From: Escherichia coli
GTDB lineage: Bacteria; Pseudomonadota; Gammaproteobacteria; Enterobacterales; Enterobacteriaceae
Assembly (NCBI RefSeq): GCF_003019035.1
Contig: NZ_CP027447.1
Reading direction: 5' to 3' (one strand)
DNA: 64,000 nt
Shown here: piece after piece, positions 2,013-60,359 of the stretch
How the letters are laid out: each line of letters opens with the position of its first letter
How positions within the stretch are numbered: the stretch's first letter is position 1
Notes under the pieces: model-generated
Databases searched by the model: none
Seen by the model: only the letters and a program-made list of their open reading frames with translations
What the model was told of the DNA's origin: nothing
Translations under genes and position numbers: made by a program

Positions 2013-3659
2013 TTATTTCACACAGCGAGTGCACTGTGTGAGTTGTATCTGCTGGAAGAAGTCATTTCCTTTATCATCCACAAGGATAAACGCCGGGAAA
2101 TCTTCCACTTCAATTTTCCAGATGGCTTCCATTCCCAGTTCCGGATATTCAACACATTCCAGGCTCTTAATACTTCCCTGCGCCAATACAGCGGCCGGAC
2201 CACCGATACTGCCAAGGTAGAAGCCGCCGTGTTTTTTACAGGCATCCGTCACCTGCTGGCTGCGGTTGCCTTTCGCCAGCATGATCATACTTCCGCCCTG
2301 CGCTTGCAGTTGATCGACATAAGAATCCATCCGTCCGGCGGTCGTTGGGCCAAGAGAACCGGAGGCATAACCTTCCGGCGTTTTGGCCGGACCCGCGTAG
2401 TAAATCGGATGATCTTTAATGTACTGCGGCAGCCCTTCACCGTTATCCATCCGCTCTTTCAGTTTGGCGTGAGCAATATCACGACCGACGATAATCGTGC
2501 CGTTAAGCGATAAGCGTGTAGAAACGGGATACTGCGACAACTGTGCGAGGATCTCTTTCATCGGACGGTTAAGGTCAACGCGCACCGCTTCGCCTTCTCC
2601 GGCTTTGCGCAGCTCTTCCGGGATATATTTGCCTGGATTATGTTCCAGTTTTTCGATCCAGATCCCCTGACGGTTGATCTTCGCTTTGATATTACGGTCA
2701 GCAGAACAGGAGACGCCCATACCGACCGGGCAGGATGCGCCGTGACGTGGCAGGCGAATCACGCGGATGTCGTGAGCGAAGTATTTACCACCAAACTGCG
2801 CACCCAGACCGAGATTTTGCGCTTCGATCAGCAATTCTTTTTCCAGTTCCACATCGCGGAATGCCTGACCGTGCTCATTCCCTTCCGTTGGCAGTTCGTC
2901 ATAGTATTTAGCGGAAGCCAGTTTCACTGTTTTAAGGTTAGTTTCTGCAGAAGTTCCACCAATTACGAACGCAATATGATACGGAGGACAGGCCGCCGTA
3001 CCCAGCGTGCGCATCTTCTCAACCAGGTAATTTTTCAGTTTCCCCGGCGTTAGTAACGCTTTGGTTTCCTGATAGAGATACGTCTTGTTTGCCGAACCAC
3101 CACCTTTGGCGATACAGAGGAATTTGTACTCGTCGCCATCAACGGCATAAAGATCGATCTGCGCTGGCAGATTGGTGCCGGTATTCACCTCTTTATACAT
3201 ATCCAGCGGCGCGTTTTGCGAGTAGCGCAAATTATCTTCGATATAAGTGTTATAGACACCGCGCGCCAGCGCCGCTTCATCACCACCACCGGTCCATACA
3301 CGCTGCCCTTTTTTACCAACAATAATCGCGGTGCCGGTATCCTGACAGGTTGGCAGAACGCCTTTCGCCGCGATGTCGGAGTTGCGCAGGAATTGCAGCG
3401 CCACATATTTATCATTTTCGCTGGCCTCCGGGTCACGCAGAATGTCGGCCACCTGTTGTTGGTGAGCCGGACGCAGCATAAACGACGCATCATGAAACGC
3501 CTGACGCGCCAACAGAGTTAACGCTTCGGGTGCGACTTTCAAAATCTCCTGCCCTTCAAATTCAGATACGCTAACGTGTTCGCTGGTTAGCAGGTAATAC
3601 TCAGTATCATCTTTTTTGAGTGGAAAAGGAGCCTGATAATGAAAGGGTTTGTTTGACAT
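2013..3659 (-). CDS. fumA: Fumarate hydratase class I (Fe-S dependent)
   Basis: 548-aa ORF with class I fumarase sequence. Confidence 0.95.
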
Positions 3660-3857
3660 TGTTCTCTCACTTACTGCCTGGTTTGGTTATGCTCTGGGCG
3701 GGTGTTCCGTTGCCCTGTTAAAAGCGAGTAACAATATCCTACACACTTTTTTAACAAAAACTGAGACTAGTACGACTTTTTGCGGCTCCAGGTTACTTCC
3801 CGTAGGATTCTTGCTTTAATAGCGGGATTAATTTCCACATTAAAACAGGGATTGATC

Positions 3858-41331: not shown

Positions 41332-41387
41332 GGAGGCAGTATTGCCCCCGGGAAGTAAGCACCGATATTAAAGGCGTTTAAGAAGGT

Positions 41388-43269: not shown

Positions 43270-44150
43270 ACACTCCTCGTCAGTATTCTGGCGGCCATTG
43301 CACTTAATCCCGGAGACATGCGGTTGAATGCTGTGCCGGCGGCGTTAAGCTGCCCGGAAACGGTATCCAGAGCACCTGCAATATTTCTTTTGTCCACACC
43401 ACTCAGCGCCGACTGCGCCTGCTGTACATACGTGGCTGCCTCACTGGCTGTTCTGGCCAGACTGATGGCATCGGGCATGGATTCAGAGAGTGCATTAAAC
43501 GCCGGAACACTTTTCCCCAGAGCTCCGGATATATTACCCAGTCCGCTCATCAGTCCCGGCACACGGGTCAGCGCGACAACGGGGTTACCCTTCATTTTCT
43601 GCGCCACCCGAACGGCACTGATAGTGGTCTGGAGTACAGACTGCGCCTGTTTCGCATAGTTGACGCCGTTACGGACGAACTGCGCCACCCCGGAAGGCGA
43701 TGGAACAGCACCAGATACGGCCCCGGCACCGGGAACCTGCCTGCGTATTGCCGGCGGTTGCAGAGGATTTTTCGGGTCACCGGTGTATTCCCGGAGAGAC
43801 ACGGTGGCACTGACAGCCAGCACGTTACCGGTGCTGTCTGTCTGCTCGCTGGTTGCGGTCACATCGGTAATCACGAACCAGCCGCGATAGTCACCGTTGC
43901 CGAAGACCAGCGCCAGTGCCTGATGGGCCTTCATGGCTGTTCGCACTCTCGCCAGCTCCACGTCGGGCACACAATAATGCTGATGGAAGACCAGGCTTAT
44001 CTGGATTTCGTCCAGCCTGTCGCCGACGAACTGCAGGCCGGGTTTACCCTCGATGCGGGCATGCTCCGCATAATCGACGCCAAACGTGGCCTCGAAGCCG
44101 TCCCAGTAGGTAATCAGTTCAAACTCAATATCACCCAGTACGGCAAACAT
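43266..44150 (-). CDS. Tail protein, gpU-like N-terminal domain with Ala/Gly/Ser-rich extension
   Basis: 294-aa ORF immediately downstream of the tape measure gene. Confidence 0.55.
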   Translation of the reverse strand: MFAVLGDIEFELITYWDGFEATFGVDYAEHARIEGKPGLQFVGDRLDEIQISLVFHQHYCVPDVELARVRTAMKAHQALALVFGNGDYRGWFVITDVTATSEQTDSTGNVLAVSATVSLREYTGDPKNPLQPPAIRRQVPGAGAVSGAVPSPSGVAQFVRNGVNYAKQAQSVLQTTISAVRVAQKMKGNPVVALTRVPGLMSGLGNISGALGKSVPAFNALSESMPDAISLARTASEAATYVQQAQSALSGVDKRNIAGALDTVSGQLNAAGTAFNRMSPGLSAMAARILTRSV

Positions 44151-46615
44151 CAGCTGTACTCCTTACGTTGTTTCTGAGCCAGCAGACGCTCCAGCATTTT
44201 TTCCAGCTCATGCAGGCTCATATTCAGGGCACCAGCCAGCCCGGCAGGCGCTGCGGTTTCCTTACCATTGAGGAAAAACTGAGGATTAAAGCTGACCTGG
44301 ATACCGCCAGACGCTCCACCGCCGGTTGCCGTTGCGCCACGGCCTGAATATCCGGCAGCCATGATTTCCGGCGACGGGATACGGGGAACATCCGGTGTCA
44401 TTTCAGCGGCCAGACGCTGCCCGGCCAGTGCAGCAAGCGGAGTGGTCCGTTGCAGGCCAATGGCGGCACCCTGCGCGATATTGTCACCAAAGCCTATAAA
44501 CACGCGACTCGGTGAATGGATGCCCAGCTTTTCGCTGAACCAGTCACTGATGCTGTCACCCATTCCGGTTATGCTGGTTTTCAGTGACTCCCATTTGTTT
44601 CTGATGCCATTTATCAGCCCGTCAATAAGATGACCACCGAAGTCGGTGAATTTCGCCGGCAAATCAACGCCGAGATATTTCAGCGCAGCCGCAAAGGCTT
44701 TATAAAGCAGACCTGCCGGAGACCAGTTAACCAGCAGTTTACCAATTCCCGCGATACCGCCGTTAAAGGCTTCCTGAATGTCAGCCCAGCGCTGTTTAAA
44801 CCAGCTACTGACCGCGCCCCAGTTGCGGTAGATAAGGTAAGCTGCTGCCGCGACGGCGGTGATAGCGAGACCGATGGGATTCATCATCAGCGCCCGGCCA
44901 ATCCAGAGAACGGCACGCCCGGCGCTCATAATTCCGCGAACCAGCCCCCCTGAGAGCACACCCCCCAGTGTTCTGGCTCCTCTGGCGACGGCACCAAAGC
45001 CTGTCACCAGCCAGCGGAGTTTACCGCCTTCCCCCAGTGCGAGCATCAGACGAAGCCAGTTGGCCCGAAGTAAAACAGCATTTTTCCAGACGCTTACAAA
45101 GGGGGAAATAAGGAGATTCAGCCCAAACTTGAGACCGATAGTGGCCATCCTGAAAGCGAGTAATGCGCCCACAACCTTTATGGTGCTGCTGACGAGCTGC
45201 GGATTTGCCGCTATCCATTTGCCGACGCTGTCCATTAAAGGAATAAATGTTTCACCCAACTGGAGCAAAGCCGGACGCAAGGATTGCCCGATGCTGATAG
45301 CAGAATCATTAAAGCCGATCTGCATTCTGCGCCAGCGACCTTCAAGCGTATCATTCTGCTTTGCAGCATCCTTATCCAGGGTAGACATTGCAGCCGGAGC
45401 ATTCATTTCCTGCTTACTGGAAAGGTATTTATCCCAGCCCTGTCGCATTGACAGTAAATGGTTGACAGTCTGAATATCGGTAAAGACCTCAGCCAGACCA
45501 AATGACTCCATGAGTTTCTGCTGACCTTCCTGATCGCCTCTTGCTCCTGCAGCTTTCCATTGCTGCAAAAACGCTTTGCCTTTACTGTCGATAAAACGGT
45601 TGGCAATCATCAGTGAAGCTTCGTACTGCGAAAAACCCTGAGCGACGTAATTCTGCATTGACCCCGGGTAATCCACCCCGGCTTTAGCATATTTCTGGAT
45701 GGTATCTCCGCGGCCCATTGCTGCCAGCCAGTTGGACATATTGGTGACCGCTTCCTCTGCAGAGCCACTACCTTTACCGACCTCCAGACTGGCAACAATC
45801 TGGGTAATCGCATCTTTTCCATAAATACCACGAGCAGCGAAGGCTTTAGCCATACCGGGTAATGCTTTTGCCATATCCTTCAGCTCAAATGACCCAAGTT
45901 TGGCTCCTGTTGCCGCAATACCAAATGCCTGTTCAAGTTCTTTCGCATCAGTGATTCTGAGTGCATCGCTGAAGGCATAAGTCATTTTGGCAAGGTCGGT
46001 CATATCGGCTTTGGTTGCTGTAGCGGTCTTTCCAAGCATCTCTGCAAACGTTGCTGCCCGTTCGGGGGCCATACCATCAGCAACTAATTGTCCGACTCCC
46101 CCTAACAGAGACTCCTGCAGTTGGTTAACCTTCAGCGAGGCCTGTCTGATAGCCAGGCCAATTGCACGTTCCTGTTTTGCATCCAGGTCTCCTGTGACAC
46201 TGATATCCCGTAACTGTGATTCAAACGAGGCATATTGTTTAACCGAGGCCATGACCGGTGCGCCCAGCGTTCTGCCAATAGCATAGGTTTCTGCACCCTG
46301 ACCATAGAGCGCCAGGCGGTTAGCCTTCAACGCATCACCGGTGGCTGATACTGCTGACAGACGGCGCTGCTGACGTTCAATTTGCTCCATGGTGCGGCTT
46401 ACCCGCAGCAACTCGCTGTTGAGATGCTGCATCCGGGAAGAACCCAGTTGACCATAACGTTCTGTTGCCCGGGTTAAGGCATTCTGGCGTTCCTGCAGAC
46501 GGCGGGAGGTATCACCAAGGGAATCAAGGGCGCGTCGGGTGCCACTGACGGCTGAGCGGAAGCTGCTCCCGACAATGCCGCCAATAATGACGCCGACTGA
46601 AAATTCACTGGCCAC
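44150..46615 (-). CDS. Tail tape measure protein
   Basis: 821-aa ORF; long helical/Ala-rich protein with hydrophobic central segments, in the canonical position after the chaperone pair. Confidence 0.88.
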   Translation of the reverse strand: MASEFSVGVIIGGIVGSSFRSAVSGTRRALDSLGDTSRRLQERQNALTRATERYGQLGSSRMQHLNSELLRVSRTMEQIERQQRRLSAVSATGDALKANRLALYGQGAETYAIGRTLGAPVMASVKQYASFESQLRDISVTGDLDAKQERAIGLAIRQASLKVNQLQESLLGGVGQLVADGMAPERAATFAEMLGKTATATKADMTDLAKMTYAFSDALRITDAKELEQAFGIAATGAKLGSFELKDMAKALPGMAKAFAARGIYGKDAITQIVASLEVGKGSGSAEEAVTNMSNWLAAMGRGDTIQKYAKAGVDYPGSMQNYVAQGFSQYEASLMIANRFIDSKGKAFLQQWKAAGARGDQEGQQKLMESFGLAEVFTDIQTVNHLLSMRQGWDKYLSSKQEMNAPAAMSTLDKDAAKQNDTLEGRWRRMQIGFNDSAISIGQSLRPALLQLGETFIPLMDSVGKWIAANPQLVSSTIKVVGALLAFRMATIGLKFGLNLLISPFVSVWKNAVLLRANWLRLMLALGEGGKLRWLVTGFGAVARGARTLGGVLSGGLVRGIMSAGRAVLWIGRALMMNPIGLAITAVAAAAYLIYRNWGAVSSWFKQRWADIQEAFNGGIAGIGKLLVNWSPAGLLYKAFAAALKYLGVDLPAKFTDFGGHLIDGLINGIRNKWESLKTSITGMGDSISDWFSEKLGIHSPSRVFIGFGDNIAQGAAIGLQRTTPLAALAGQRLAAEMTPDVPRIPSPEIMAAGYSGRGATATGGGASGGIQVSFNPQFFLNGKETAAPAGLAGALNMSLHELEKMLERLLAQKQRKEYS

Positions 46616-46707
46616 GGTGGCTATCCTCTGAAAGCAAAAAAACGGAAGGGAAGTGTCTGAACCCCATGCAGAACAGCCGCGACTGGCGGCTGTTAAGTGA
46701 TACGTTG

Positions 46708-46965
46708 TTACTGATTGTCGCCGAACTCGCTTTTGATTTGCTCTTCAGCCTGCTCCAGCCACATCTCCAGATCGTCAGTATCGAGGGCATCAATCTCCCC
46801 CGGCTGAAACCTGAACCATCTCGCCAGCAGGCCCTGCGCCTGCATCAGTGTTTTTGTCGCTCTTGCCCAGCCCAGTGATTTTCTGAAATCGTTTCTGCAG
46901 CTCCATATAGTCGGCAAGATCCATGTTATCGAGGTCTTCCGGGAGGATACCGGTGCTACGGGCAA
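46708..46965 (-). CDS. Overlapping frame of the tail assembly chaperone (frameshift extension product, P2 E+E'-like)
   Basis: 85-aa ORF in the +1 frame, overlapping the 3' end of the 46790..47131 ORF; a GGGGGAG run sits 3 codons before the upstream ORF's stop. Confidence 0.5.
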   Translation of the reverse strand: MPVAPVSSRKTSITWILPTIWSCRNDFRKSLGWARATKTLMQAQGLLARWFRFQPGEIDALDTDDLEMWLEQAEEQIKSEFGDNQ

Positions 46966-47131
46966 TCAGTGGTTCGTCCCAGTCTGCCGGGTCTTTGTTG
47001 ATTTTGCGCACCTGCTTCAGGTCTTTAACTGTCAGGCGTTTCAGTTCAATCTGTTCAATTCTGGTACCTGCAGCAGTGGTGAAAGGATAAGACAGCGTAA
47101 AAGTATCGGACTGGGTCTGTGACATGATCAT
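46790..47131 (-). CDS. Tail assembly chaperone (P2 gpE-like)
   Basis: 113-aa acidic ORF between the tube and tape measure genes. Confidence 0.7.
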   Translation of the reverse strand: MIMSQTQSDTFTLSYPFTTAAGTRIEQIELKRLTVKDLKQVRKINKDPADWDEPLIARSTGILPEDLDNMDLADYMELQKRFQKITGLGKSDKNTDAGAGPAGEMVQVSAGGD

Positions 47132-47222
47132 ACTCCTTTGTAAATTCAGAGCAGTATGTCTGGCGGTGGACGTGACGGATATTAAAGGGGATTAAGAAGA
47201 AGGGGCCGGAGCCCCTGTGATG

Positions 47223-47504
47223 TCAGCAAGTGCGAAAACCCTTGCAGTTACGCAGGAAAGCGATGAGAAGCGCCTTTCCCTCAGATTTGCCGATGCCGGA
47301 GAACCAGTGGTCGGGCGGCTCCCATGCTTCAATCAAATCGGCCAGTTTTCGGGCCTTTGAACGTGTGCAGTCAATCGGGTCATTGGTTTTACGGGTATTA
47401 AAAAGGGTTTCCACCCCCGGAATATCAAGGAGGGTAAACCACGTACCATTTGACATGCCCAGTGACGCACATCGCCCTCCTTTGTCAGTCAGTTCAACAC
47501 TCAC
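47223..47504 (-). CDS. Hypothetical Cys-containing small protein
   Basis: 93-aa ORF between tube and chaperone; no recognisable domain. Confidence 0.35.
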   Translation of the reverse strand: MSVELTDKGGRCASLGMSNGTWFTLLDIPGVETLFNTRKTNDPIDCTRSKARKLADLIEAWEPPDHWFSGIGKSEGKALLIAFLRNCKGFRTC

Positions 47505-47506
47505 CG

Positions 47507-48028
47507 TCAGCCCCCGATATTGATCCGATAGTCAGTCAGTTGATCAACGCCACCGACGCGGAAGATGTTGGCCAGATAGTCCAGTTGCAGCAACTCTTCA
47601 CCATCCAGTACCTGTCTGATATACGTGCAGGTGAAGCTACTGGAGAACTCGGCGTTCTCGTGCTGTTTAAACGTCCCCAGCGGGTTCTTCTTGAACATAA
47701 TTGTCAGGAAGGTGACCAGCGGGATTTCGTCGATCAGCCCCTGCGAGCTGTAGCGCTGGACGCTGGAGCGACACTGCAGCGCCAGCGACCTGTACGGGTT
47801 CGCGGCAGACAGCATCGCATCGCGGTAAAAGCTGTTCCATTTGATTTCGCCTTCCAGTTTGTCAAAACCAGCCGGGAGTTCCACCTTACCCACCATCCCC
47901 AGTGCCTTGTGCTCCTGCATAATCATGGAGACATCGGGGAGTTTAACCTCCTCAGCCCGTCCCAGCAGGTTAGTACCATCCAGATAGATGTTGGCATTCG
48001 TGATTCGGTTTATCTCAATCTTTGACAT
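47507..48028 (-). CDS. Tail tube protein (Mu gpM-like)
   Basis: 173-aa ORF immediately downstream of the sheath gene. Confidence 0.85.
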   Translation of the reverse strand: MSKIEINRITNANIYLDGTNLLGRAEEVKLPDVSMIMQEHKALGMVGKVELPAGFDKLEGEIKWNSFYRDAMLSAANPYRSLALQCRSSVQRYSSQGLIDEIPLVTFLTIMFKKNPLGTFKQHENAEFSSSFTCTYIRQVLDGEELLQLDYLANIFRVGGVDQLTDYRINIGG

Positions 48029-49455
48029 CAGTTGCCCCCTTTCAGGGTTAACAGGTATTCCGAGGTGATCTCAGTCTCAAACGTCAGTCGCTCCAGCGGC
48101 GGTGGTGGCGTATATTTGTAGCTCAGCAACAGGTGCCCGGCGGCCAGCTCCGTTTCCGGATTGCGGGCCGGATCAAACCAGCAACGGAAGCCCAGTACCG
48201 CGCCATCACCAGTCATTTTGCGACCGTAAGCGTTGACCGACTCCGTCAGTGCATCAATCAGCGCCTGAGTAATCGGCATGTCGATGTACTGCTGGCTGAA
48301 GTAACGAATGGACTCATTGATCACATCACCGGTGCGGCGAACGTTCTCAAAGTTACGCATATGGGTGACCGTTGGCCATGCTGCCGTCCGGTTACCCCAC
48401 AGACGAAGGCCGCTGCCGTAACTGCTGAATACCGTGGTGATCCCCTGTTCGTTAAGCAGGTTCACCTCGCTCTGCGGATCGTCAATCATTGCCGACAGCT
48501 GGCGCTCCACGCCGGTGATCCCCAGAATCTCCTGATTGGAGGATGACCACCAGTACCCTTTGTCCAGGTCGACTCTGGCACGCAGGCCCGCCGCACGCTG
48601 GCTCAGTGGCTCCAGACGCTCCGTGTTCGTCACCGGGTCATATACCTTCACATGCGGGTAGCACAGGCGGACACGGTCAGAGCTGGTATTAAAGTTAATG
48701 GTGCCTTCCGGGCCACGTCCCGCCAGAGCCTGCGCAAAAGTGGTACCAACCGGCGCATCAATATAGGTTACTGCTCCCAGTTTCTCAGCCATGGCGATAA
48801 GCTCAACCGAGACGCTGTTCTGGGTGCAGAATACCGGAGCAATCAGGATTTTGGCGAAGTAGCCAAACAGGTTAAAACTGTCGTTAAGCAGCTTCATGCC
48901 GGTACGGTTGCCTGCAGCGTTAACGGTACCGATGATATCAGCCGGGGTGACTTTGGTCGGATCAGCATAGTTATAGCTGGCCTTCACCGTTGCATCTGCA
49001 GCAATGCTTTTACCCAGGTTAGTAATCACCCCGGTCTGTGCATCAAGCGAGTAGTCCTGACCTTCAACATAAGGCTGACCGTCGCTGTCCGGTTTCAGTA
49101 CCAGCTGCGCGACCACCGGATTAGCCAGCCGGGCTCTGCCTGTCGCCTTGTCGAACGACACATTCTCACTGACCACAGCGGTTTTATGCACAGACGGATC
49201 GAGTACGTTAATGACCAGAACGGTGCCTGCACCATGGTCATAAATCGCATCCAGCGCCTGCGGAATGGTAAAGCCGGTGAACTGGCTGCCAAATGCCGCT
49301 GCGTCTTTCTCAGACAGGCACTGTACCAGCGTATTGACATCCCCCATTGGTGCGGTACCAATCAGGCCAATAACGGCAGATTTCACCGTTTTAACCGGGC
49401 GGGCACCGTTTTCCACTTCAATGGTTTCGACGCCATGCAGATAGTTAGCTGCCAT
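48028..49455 (-). CDS. Contractile tail sheath protein (Mu gpL-like)
   Basis: 475-aa ORF in the sheath family. Confidence 0.9.
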   Translation of the reverse strand: MAANYLHGVETIEVENGARPVKTVKSAVIGLIGTAPMGDVNTLVQCLSEKDAAAFGSQFTGFTIPQALDAIYDHGAGTVLVINVLDPSVHKTAVVSENVSFDKATGRARLANPVVAQLVLKPDSDGQPYVEGQDYSLDAQTGVITNLGKSIAADATVKASYNYADPTKVTPADIIGTVNAAGNRTGMKLLNDSFNLFGYFAKILIAPVFCTQNSVSVELIAMAEKLGAVTYIDAPVGTTFAQALAGRGPEGTINFNTSSDRVRLCYPHVKVYDPVTNTERLEPLSQRAAGLRARVDLDKGYWWSSSNQEILGITGVERQLSAMIDDPQSEVNLLNEQGITTVFSSYGSGLRLWGNRTAAWPTVTHMRNFENVRRTGDVINESIRYFSQQYIDMPITQALIDALTESVNAYGRKMTGDGAVLGFRCWFDPARNPETELAAGHLLLSYKYTPPPPLERLTFETEITSEYLLTLKGGN

Positions 49456-53039: not shown

Positions 53040-53253
53040 TTTGCTGTCCCGCGTTATGTTGTCGGAGACAGTTTGTGAGAAATGCAGGCCCGGCGATTTT
53101 AATCTGCTTTAGAAAACATCAGGGGAGAAGGACAGGGAAAGCAATGCGGTGAACCGGAAGCGGTTATAAAACAGAGGCTGTAAAGCCTTTATAAAGGTAA
53201 TACAGCCCCTCATTCGCTGGCAATGATAAATCACCCGCCTGAAGAGAGAAAAC

Positions 53254-59882: not shown

Positions 59883-60262
59883 AGTCCTGTTGCCACAGCC
59901 AGACAGACCGCTGCAACAATCAGTGCACGGCGGATTAACGCAGCAGAAAATACAAGGTGAAGGCCGGTCTGCACAGGGAAACGCCCTTCAGCCATCAGCC
60001 TGTCTTCATGTTTCAGGTACTGACCGGGACGGGCTTTGGGGAAGAGTGAACGGTCAAGCCAGTAACCCAGCACTGCTGCCAGCGTGATGAGTGCCAGCTT
60101 GTAGATCACAACAGGCAGCTGCTGTGGCGAGACCAGAGCGATGGTGCCCAGCAACAGCACTGAGGTCAGCAGCCAGCCGCTGAGGCGAGGTTTTTTAACA
60201 GGGGGAATGAATTTTTTCAGGTTTTTCATGTGTGTCTCCTTGTCTGGTGGAGACAGCATCAC
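59879..60262 (-). CDS. Putative holin / lysis-associated membrane protein
   Basis: 127-aa ORF with about 3 predicted TM helices, first gene of the lysis cluster. Confidence 0.45.
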   Translation of the reverse strand: MMLSPPDKETHMKNLKKFIPPVKKPRLSGWLLTSVLLLGTIALVSPQQLPVVIYKLALITLAAVLGYWLDRSLFPKARPGQYLKHEDRLMAEGRFPVQTGLHLVFSAALIRRALIVAAVCLAVATGL

Positions 60263-60359
60263 AAATACAGGGCGCGAAGGATTTTAAAGCGCGTTAAGAG
60301 AGCCGGGGATACGGGATGTGCAGGATAAACGATGAATTATTCACAGAGGAGAATACGAT

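Follow-up and report, generated by a model that had tools for sequence, protein, structure and literature searches.

The interval between the tail tube gene and the tail assembly chaperone gene of a prophage in Escherichia coli is a true cargo slot, and the 93-codon open reading frame (ORF) that it holds in the stretch analysed here (47223..47504, minus strand; the window is the whole 64,000-nt stretch of contig NZ_CP027447.1) is one of a number of genes that can fill it; the tail can do without this gene, and other genes can take its place. The prophage is a BcepMu-like (Bcepmuvirus) transposable phage whose identity in this region to Escherichia phage PhiKM, Klebsiella phage KP12 and Phi06_2974 B is 89-93%. 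The ORF, a genuine gene under purifying selection, joins an already catalogued family of uncharacterised function, DUF7739 / phrog_1239. Its product is probably a small host-interference protein; the fuller proposal, that a mobile DUF7739 / phrog_1239 accessory gene occupies a cargo slot of the Bcepmuvirus type and acts as an inhibitor of a host protein, has in our judgement about an even chance of being correct.

An earlier note on this DNA had placed a 93-aa ORF between the tube and chaperone genes and had suggested that it could be cargo inserted within the tail operon. The ORF is confirmed there, flanked by genes that match PF04985 and PF10109, and the cargo proposal is supported by empty intervals in relatives, by unrelated genes at the same place elsewhere, by a clean insertion and by the non-structural contexts of homologues. 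The comparison with related prophages that the note had proposed was run on 80 IMG/VR loci anchored on the tube protein (the best 80 of 186 tube relatives, so that the fractions are not population frequencies) and revealed both presence/absence and replacement polymorphism, with the following contents of the interval:

DUF7739 homologue: 54 of 80 loci; interval of about 380 nt if no other gene is present.
Extra 97-aa PF13876 gene (N4 gp49 / Sf6 gp66 family) before the DUF7739 gene: 5 of the 54 loci; about 665 nt.
Visibly decayed DUF7739 copies: 5 of the 54 loci; internal deletion in L046, N-terminal deletion in L074 and L075, frameshift or truncation in L053 and L057.
Empty interval: 12 of 80 loci; 91-164 nt.
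Interval of about 335 nt: 8 of 80 loci; 7 with an unrelated 66-aa acidic protein (phrog_9518), and L070 with a 69-aa ORF on the opposite strand.
Ferredoxin-like protein of 100-110 aa (PF00111, phrog_844) with the cluster-binding Cys replaced by Ser/Asp: 3 of 80 loci.
GC-rich insert of 410-423 nt without a convincing ORF: 3 of 80 loci.

The DUF7739 gene is missing from the slot in 26 of the 80 relatives, 12 of which have nothing in its place. When the window is aligned with five empty sites (L047, L048, L051, L054 and L058, with tubes 91-95% identical and on phage-sized contigs of 33-81 kb), the difference is a single clean gap of about 285 nt that opens just past the tube stop codon and closes a few bases short of a GC-rich hairpin; this gap, together with the variable content of the interval, is what identifies the interval as a cargo slot. 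BcepMu itself has nothing but an intergenic spacer between its tube (gp40) and chaperone (gp41) genes and no DUF7739 gene, and a Salmonella relative of the STM42xx type likewise has an empty interval, the tube gene being followed directly by the chaperone gene. The conserved presence at this position that would mark a structural or assembly gene of a Bcepmuvirus / P2-type tail was accordingly not found. Base composition is no marker of the insert (GC 0.51 vs 0.52-0.55). At the protein level the DUF7739 gene evolves 4-5 times faster than the tube, which fits an accessory or arms-race gene, and its synonymous divergence (dS) is like that of the tube; the gene has therefore long been resident in the enterobacterial lineage and is not a recent insertion.

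Several observations concern the other occupants of the slot. Where two cargo genes are present (L039 3523-3816, also L038, L044, L050 and L071), the PF13876 gene lies 5' of the DUF7739 gene and their stop and start codons overlap; both occupants therefore have homologues in accessory regions of Sf6. The acidic phrog_9518 cargo replaces the DUF7739 gene in L059, L065-L069 and L072 (about 3522-3722). The ferredoxin-like cargo is of plant type (phrog_844 'ferredoxin'; L078 3572-3874, L083 and L086 3536-3868) and has SGRAGSDSSSAAR where a Cys-rich loop is usual; binding of a 2Fe-2S cluster is probably impossible. The GC-rich (61%) insert (L079 3519-3930, L080 2971-3394, L082 3519-3929) contains several inverted repeats, shows no convincing ORF on the two strands and may be a repeat element or encode a structured RNA; Rfam gave no match in the window interval or in the 410-nt non-coding variant. 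The 69-aa opposite-strand ORF of L070 (591-932; MQDDSHIQMMVYAIG...) would be antisense-oriented cargo.

The window gene is a 282-nt coding sequence (CDS) whose GTG start lies 2 nt past the TGA of the tail tube gene (...ATC GGG GGC TGA CG GTG AGT GTT GAA...) and whose 3' end is separated by 91 nt from the gpE-type tail assembly chaperone gene. Its start is ambiguous (47457-47504), many E. coli records annotating a 77-aa product from an internal ATG (M17); the N-terminal strand (MTVE..PK), conserved in the family, favours the 93-aa GTG form. The same 282-nt CDS is a 'hypothetical protein' in GenBank (PhiKM) and in RefSeq (WP_000110115.1). The GTG start, the small size and this want of functional annotation might recall a chance ORF or mis-annotation in what is merely an intergenic spacer, an explanation whose probability we put at practically nil and which is already refuted: phrog_1239 is matched along the whole protein (residues 1-93 on 1-96 of 96, E 5e-48), unrelated phages have homologues at 27-59% identity, the predicted fold is confident, and orthologues at the tube-chaperone position have pairwise ratios of nonsynonymous to synonymous divergence (dN/dS) of 0.02-0.17 (about 0.1) at dS of 0.2-1.5.

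Assignment to DUF7739 (PF24881) / phrog_1239 follows from profile matches. The Pfam DUF7739 model gives the window protein 25.7 bits (E 1.7e-5), narrowly missing the gathering cut-off of 27 bits; a profile made from close relatives recovers proteins above the Pfam threshold, DUF7739 is matched by 13 of 55 homologues at E<=0.01 (best E 7.3e-19), and the Sf6-type and EPP-1-type homologues carry the DUF7739 name in their sources. The window protein has the build of the family, a single domain of 93 aa with the conserved motifs NGTWF, TNDP, WxPPxxW and FxxCxGFxT, and its named relatives include Sf6 gene 22, the gene at hkaH of CUS-3, homologues in HK75 and P1-like phages, and pHCM2 0097c. Searched exhaustively with the profile, 1.84 billion representatives yielded 73 clusters at E<=1e-3 and 47 at E<=1e-10, nearly all of whose members are stand-alone proteins of 90-100 aa. 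Apparent fusions (DUF2737+, lambda P+, +YopX and a 613-aa repeat protein) look like read-through into lambdoid genes alongside, artefacts of gene calling or a spurious hit, and they offered no functional lead. Across 55 family members, Pfam at a permissive threshold detected DUF7739 only; every source name for the family is 'hypothetical' or 'DUF7739 domain-containing', and literature searches on DUF7739, phrog_1239, hkaH and fHe-Yen8-01 found nothing relevant.

The family travels alone between accessory regions of temperate enterobacterial phages. Searches of phage genomes with tblastn found homologues at 39-54% identity in several phages, within the wider range given above. In Shigella phage Sf6, gene 22 belongs to the early-left operon and comes three genes after abc2, which encodes an inhibitor of RecBCD; the homologues of HK75 and CUS-3 (at hkaH) are likewise in the early-left region; and others adjoin EaA/EaE in the lambdoid ea region, lie between rdgC and the integrase gene in Edwardsiella phage EPP-1, occupy a variable region of P1-like Punavirus genomes or, in a metagenomic representative, stand in a Mu-like early region just before GemA/Mor. 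In the 92-kb Yersinia phage fHe-Yen8-01 the homologue is gp123 (39% identical), named 'particle associated protein' in GenBank; further particle-associated proteins lie around it, among them a methyltransferase and an ADP-ribosyltransferase toxin. A further metagenomic member, P0035, lies between the Mu F (minor head) and protease genes of a Mu-like phage; at L087 (4712-4999) and L088 (642-929) a DUF7739 member begins 3 nt past a Mu F-type gene and ends 327 nt before a protease/scaffold gene, with an 89-aa antisense ORF overlapping its 3' end. The proteins of Sf6 gene 22 (L004 4001-4300) and of the copy in the P1-like myovirus vB_EcoM-813R1 (L097 5001-5300) are 99% identical, which implies recent exchange of a single gene between unrelated phages; the EaA-like neighbours of these two copies are only about 39% identical. 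No partner gene conserved across contexts was found, an EaA-like neighbour recurring loosely and in changing order. The window gene shares family, length (about 93-100 aa) and motifs with these relatives but lies in a late tail operon, unlike the lambdoid, P1-like and Mu-like genes in their early or variable accessory regions.

The features around the window gene, in the direction of transcription, are as follows:

48028..49455, minus strand: tail sheath gene, upstream of the tube gene (PF04984/PF17482).
47507..48028, minus strand: tail tube gene, P2 FII type (PF04985, E 2.9e-53).
47223..47504, minus strand: DUF7739 / phrog_1239 accessory gene, 93 aa (phrog_1239, profile search, dN/dS, AlphaFold2 pLDDT 92.3).
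47201..47216, minus strand: GC-rich hairpin with a 6-bp stem and tetraloop, then UUCUUCUU (folding -12.8 kcal/mol, z -2.0).
47152..47188, minus strand: motif CCTTTAATATC-N20-ATACTG, candidate late promoter (2 exact copies in the window vs 0 expected).
46790..47131, minus strand: tail assembly chaperone gene, P2 gpE / Mu gp41 type, the first gene past the slot (PF10109, E 1.5e-22).
46708..46965, minus strand: overlapping frame, a chaperone frameshift extension of gpE' type (phrog_8286, E 1e-31; weak PF06528 match); its counterpart in RefSeq relatives is annotated 'GpE family phage tail protein'.
44150..46615, minus strand: tape measure gene (PF10145).

The hairpin, directly 3' of the ORF stop, is terminator-like. 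An equivalent is present in most of the aligned empty-site relatives (it is absent in L054 and L058), and the hairpin is therefore phage backbone rather than part of the cargo, forming the right-hand edge of the slot. The motif beyond it is kept at the slot position in 59 loci, irrespective of cargo, and its columns are invariant in the empty-site alignment. The second exact copy (CCTTTAATATC-N20/21-ATACTG) lies at 41337-41374 (minus strand), just upstream of a GPW/gp25-type baseplate gene, and degenerate copies near 60255-60290 and 53060-53100 (both minus strand) precede the holin and protease/scaffold genes. Phage Mu has activator-dependent late promoters, and by analogy the four motif sites look like promoters of that kind. 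The copy at 47152-47188 would then serve the chaperone and tape-measure unit and, if it is so read, the DUF7739 gene would be the last gene of a protease-capsid-sheath-tube late unit.

A scan of 46600-48200 for sigma-70-like consensus sites found none on the minus strand, although atypical promoters can escape a consensus scan. Because no promoter-like site precedes the DUF7739 gene, which follows the tube stop by 2 nt, it should be made late, with the sheath and tube proteins, and its translation is probably coupled to that of the highly expressed tube gene. This arrangement is at odds with a lysogenic-conversion gene, that is, one expressed from the prophage and encoding either an orphan immunity-like protein directed against an incoming toxin or a superinfection exclusion protein. 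Besides the want of a same-strand promoter-like site upstream, the lambdoid and Mu-like relatives lie inside early lytic operons that are repressed in lysogens, and the protein lacks the signal peptide or membrane segment found in many exclusion proteins; we consider lysogenic conversion quite improbable.

AlphaFold2, supplied with a 55-sequence alignment, produced a confident, compact model (pLDDT 92.3, pTM 0.83) with the order strand-strand-helix, short strand, helix, helix, strand. The window protein is accordingly modelled as a small, soluble, compact single-domain alpha/beta protein with a conserved patch (NGTWF, TNDP, WxPPxxW, CxGF). Its matches in structural comparison, with their scores, were the following:

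Neisseria DMP12 (3w1o_B): 7.2; 78 residues aligned, root-mean-square deviation 2.4 Å, 6% identity.
Pseudomonas aeruginosa DapD N-terminal domain: 6.0.
CdiI immunity protein (5j4a_D) of Burkholderia pseudomallei E479: 5.4.
E. coli YfbM (1ryl_B): 5.1.

Foldseek found nothing significant in PDB (DMP12 at E 1.9) and, in BFVD, E values around 1e-3 or below for two unnamed proteins only, which gave no lead; PDB sequences searched with two profiles (A1 and A2) yielded nothing relevant. Any likeness to DMP12 (3w1o) and CdiI (5j4a_D) would be one of fold only, with no sequence similarity detected and no support from Foldseek, and homology to YfbM / DUF1877 was rejected (hhalign probability 0.3%). DMP12 binds HU as an acidic mimic of DNA (PMC3643605). 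A similar role for the window protein, blocking a DNA-binding host protein such as HU, is very unlikely, since the protein is basic (pI 8.4, net charge +2) and the pI range of the family is broad (4.1 to 9.7, above 7 in 17 of 55 members); a strongly acidic, DNA-like surface was not found, and the low identity to DMP12, the Foldseek E value and the PDB profile searches likewise speak against mimicry.

Two further points concern the earlier note. Its description of the protein as Cys-containing is literally true (C12, C46, C87 and C93) but is no sign of a metal site: C87 is the sole Cys conserved across the family, C46 is kept among close relatives only, C93 is mostly His, and with one conserved Cys there is no metal-binding Cys motif, so that a zinc or other metal site was rejected. 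The profile and structure searches that it had called for placed the protein in DUF7739 / phrog_1239 and, with Foldseek, gave no significant match in PDB.

The mechanism that we propose for host interference is that the small DUF7739 protein would bind a host protein stoichiometrically and inhibit it, in counter-defence or in host takeover. The slot would lie between the tube stop and the hairpin terminator, at the 3' end of the protease-capsid-sheath-tube late unit, and the late-promoter-like motif past the hairpin would restart transcription for the chaperone and tape-measure genes. The inhibitor might act while structural proteins accumulate (tail tube proteins are sensed by some defence systems, such as DSR2; PMC11087589); alternatively, it might be synthesized late, loaded into the virion and carried into the next cell, an option that fits the 'particle associated' annotation of the fHe-Yen8-01 homologue.

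Several points weigh against an inhibitor of a host protein carried as cargo. An inhibitor needed early in infection would not usually be expressed late, along with tail genes; the fold matches, weak as they are, extend to domains that have no known binding role (the DapD N-terminal domain and YfbM); and scans of the window protein with PADLOC and NCBIfam gave no match. The tube-chaperone interval was found in 640 of 5,426 complete E. coli genomes, with at least 80% query coverage in 631 of the 640, so that the DUF7739 gene is near-fixed in E. coli prophages of this type. This near-fixation and the co-divergence with the tube also fit a lineage-specific virion accessory, as does the annotation of one homologue (fHe-Yen8-01 gp123) as particle-associated. 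Such a protein, for example one associated with the tube or an internal protein that is ejected, would belong to the virion or tail and not be strictly required for assembly. Its position in a late operon directly past the tube gene, with probable translational coupling, its almost constant presence in these E. coli prophages, the tube-like dS that points to long residence, and the neighbourhood of gp123 among other particle-associated proteins all suit this alternative. We nevertheless hold it to be unlikely, because the interval is empty or filled by an unrelated gene in relatives whose tubes are 91-95% identical, contigs of otherwise phage size contain decayed copies, most homologues lie in early, non-structural regions (including that of the podovirus Sf6, which has no tube), and the particle association of gp123 rests on its GenBank annotation only, no paper having been found. 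The earlier note had named two marks of an ordinary structural gene, conservation throughout the related phages and association with the virion; presence is not universal, and on the second count there is the 'particle associated protein' annotation of this one distant homologue.

The slot may be compared with two kinds of known cargo site. In Mu-like phages of Pseudomonas (JBD30/D3112 type), anti-CRISPR genes occupy a slot, reportedly described by Bondy-Denomy and colleagues in 2013, that separates the head-morphogenesis genes from the protease/scaffold genes of the late morphogenesis operon. The likeness consists in transposable phages, a slot in the structural block and interchangeable small genes, and the position of P0035, from Mu F to protease, is analogous to the Pseudomonas slot. 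The differences are that the slot of the window lies between tube and chaperone rather than in the head block and that no aca-type regulator or dedicated promoter was seen here. On that analogy, DUF7739 might be a new family of phage inhibitors directed at a host immune or housekeeping protein, and the slot in enterobacterial Bcepmuviruses an 'anti-defence slot' like the Pseudomonas locus, a possibility that we put forward tentatively, as more doubtful than probable. Its occupants (DUF7739, the gp49/66-like protein, phrog_9518 and the Cys-less ferredoxin-like protein) would be made with the tail proteins and would either neutralise sensors of late structural proteins or ride the virion into the next cell.

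The second kind comprises the morons of HK97 and lambda and the variable Z/fun region of P2, between G and FI. In common with these, the slot adds a dispensable gene at the boundary of a late unit, with content that varies among collinear relatives. Classical morons bring a promoter and a terminator with them and are expressed from the prophage, whereas the window gene has no promoter-like site and the hairpin belongs to the backbone, so that neither an own promoter nor a terminator travelling with the gene was found. P2 also has a cos-proximal hotspot (PMC9122126). The P2 hotspots hold defence systems, often of several genes, whereas the slot described here holds single small genes.

As it stands, the finding is one of ordinary phage mosaicism, and cargo slots of this kind are common in phage genomes. 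Its value as a lead lies in a sharply bounded slot: phages that are otherwise collinear hold no fewer than four unrelated small genes there, and about 12% of complete E. coli genomes carry a prophage of this type. DUF7739 recurs in classic accessory regions of P22-like, P1-like, fHe-Yen8-01-type and Mu-like phages, and DUF7739 and its slot-mates form a short, testable list of candidate genes for host interference or counter-defence.
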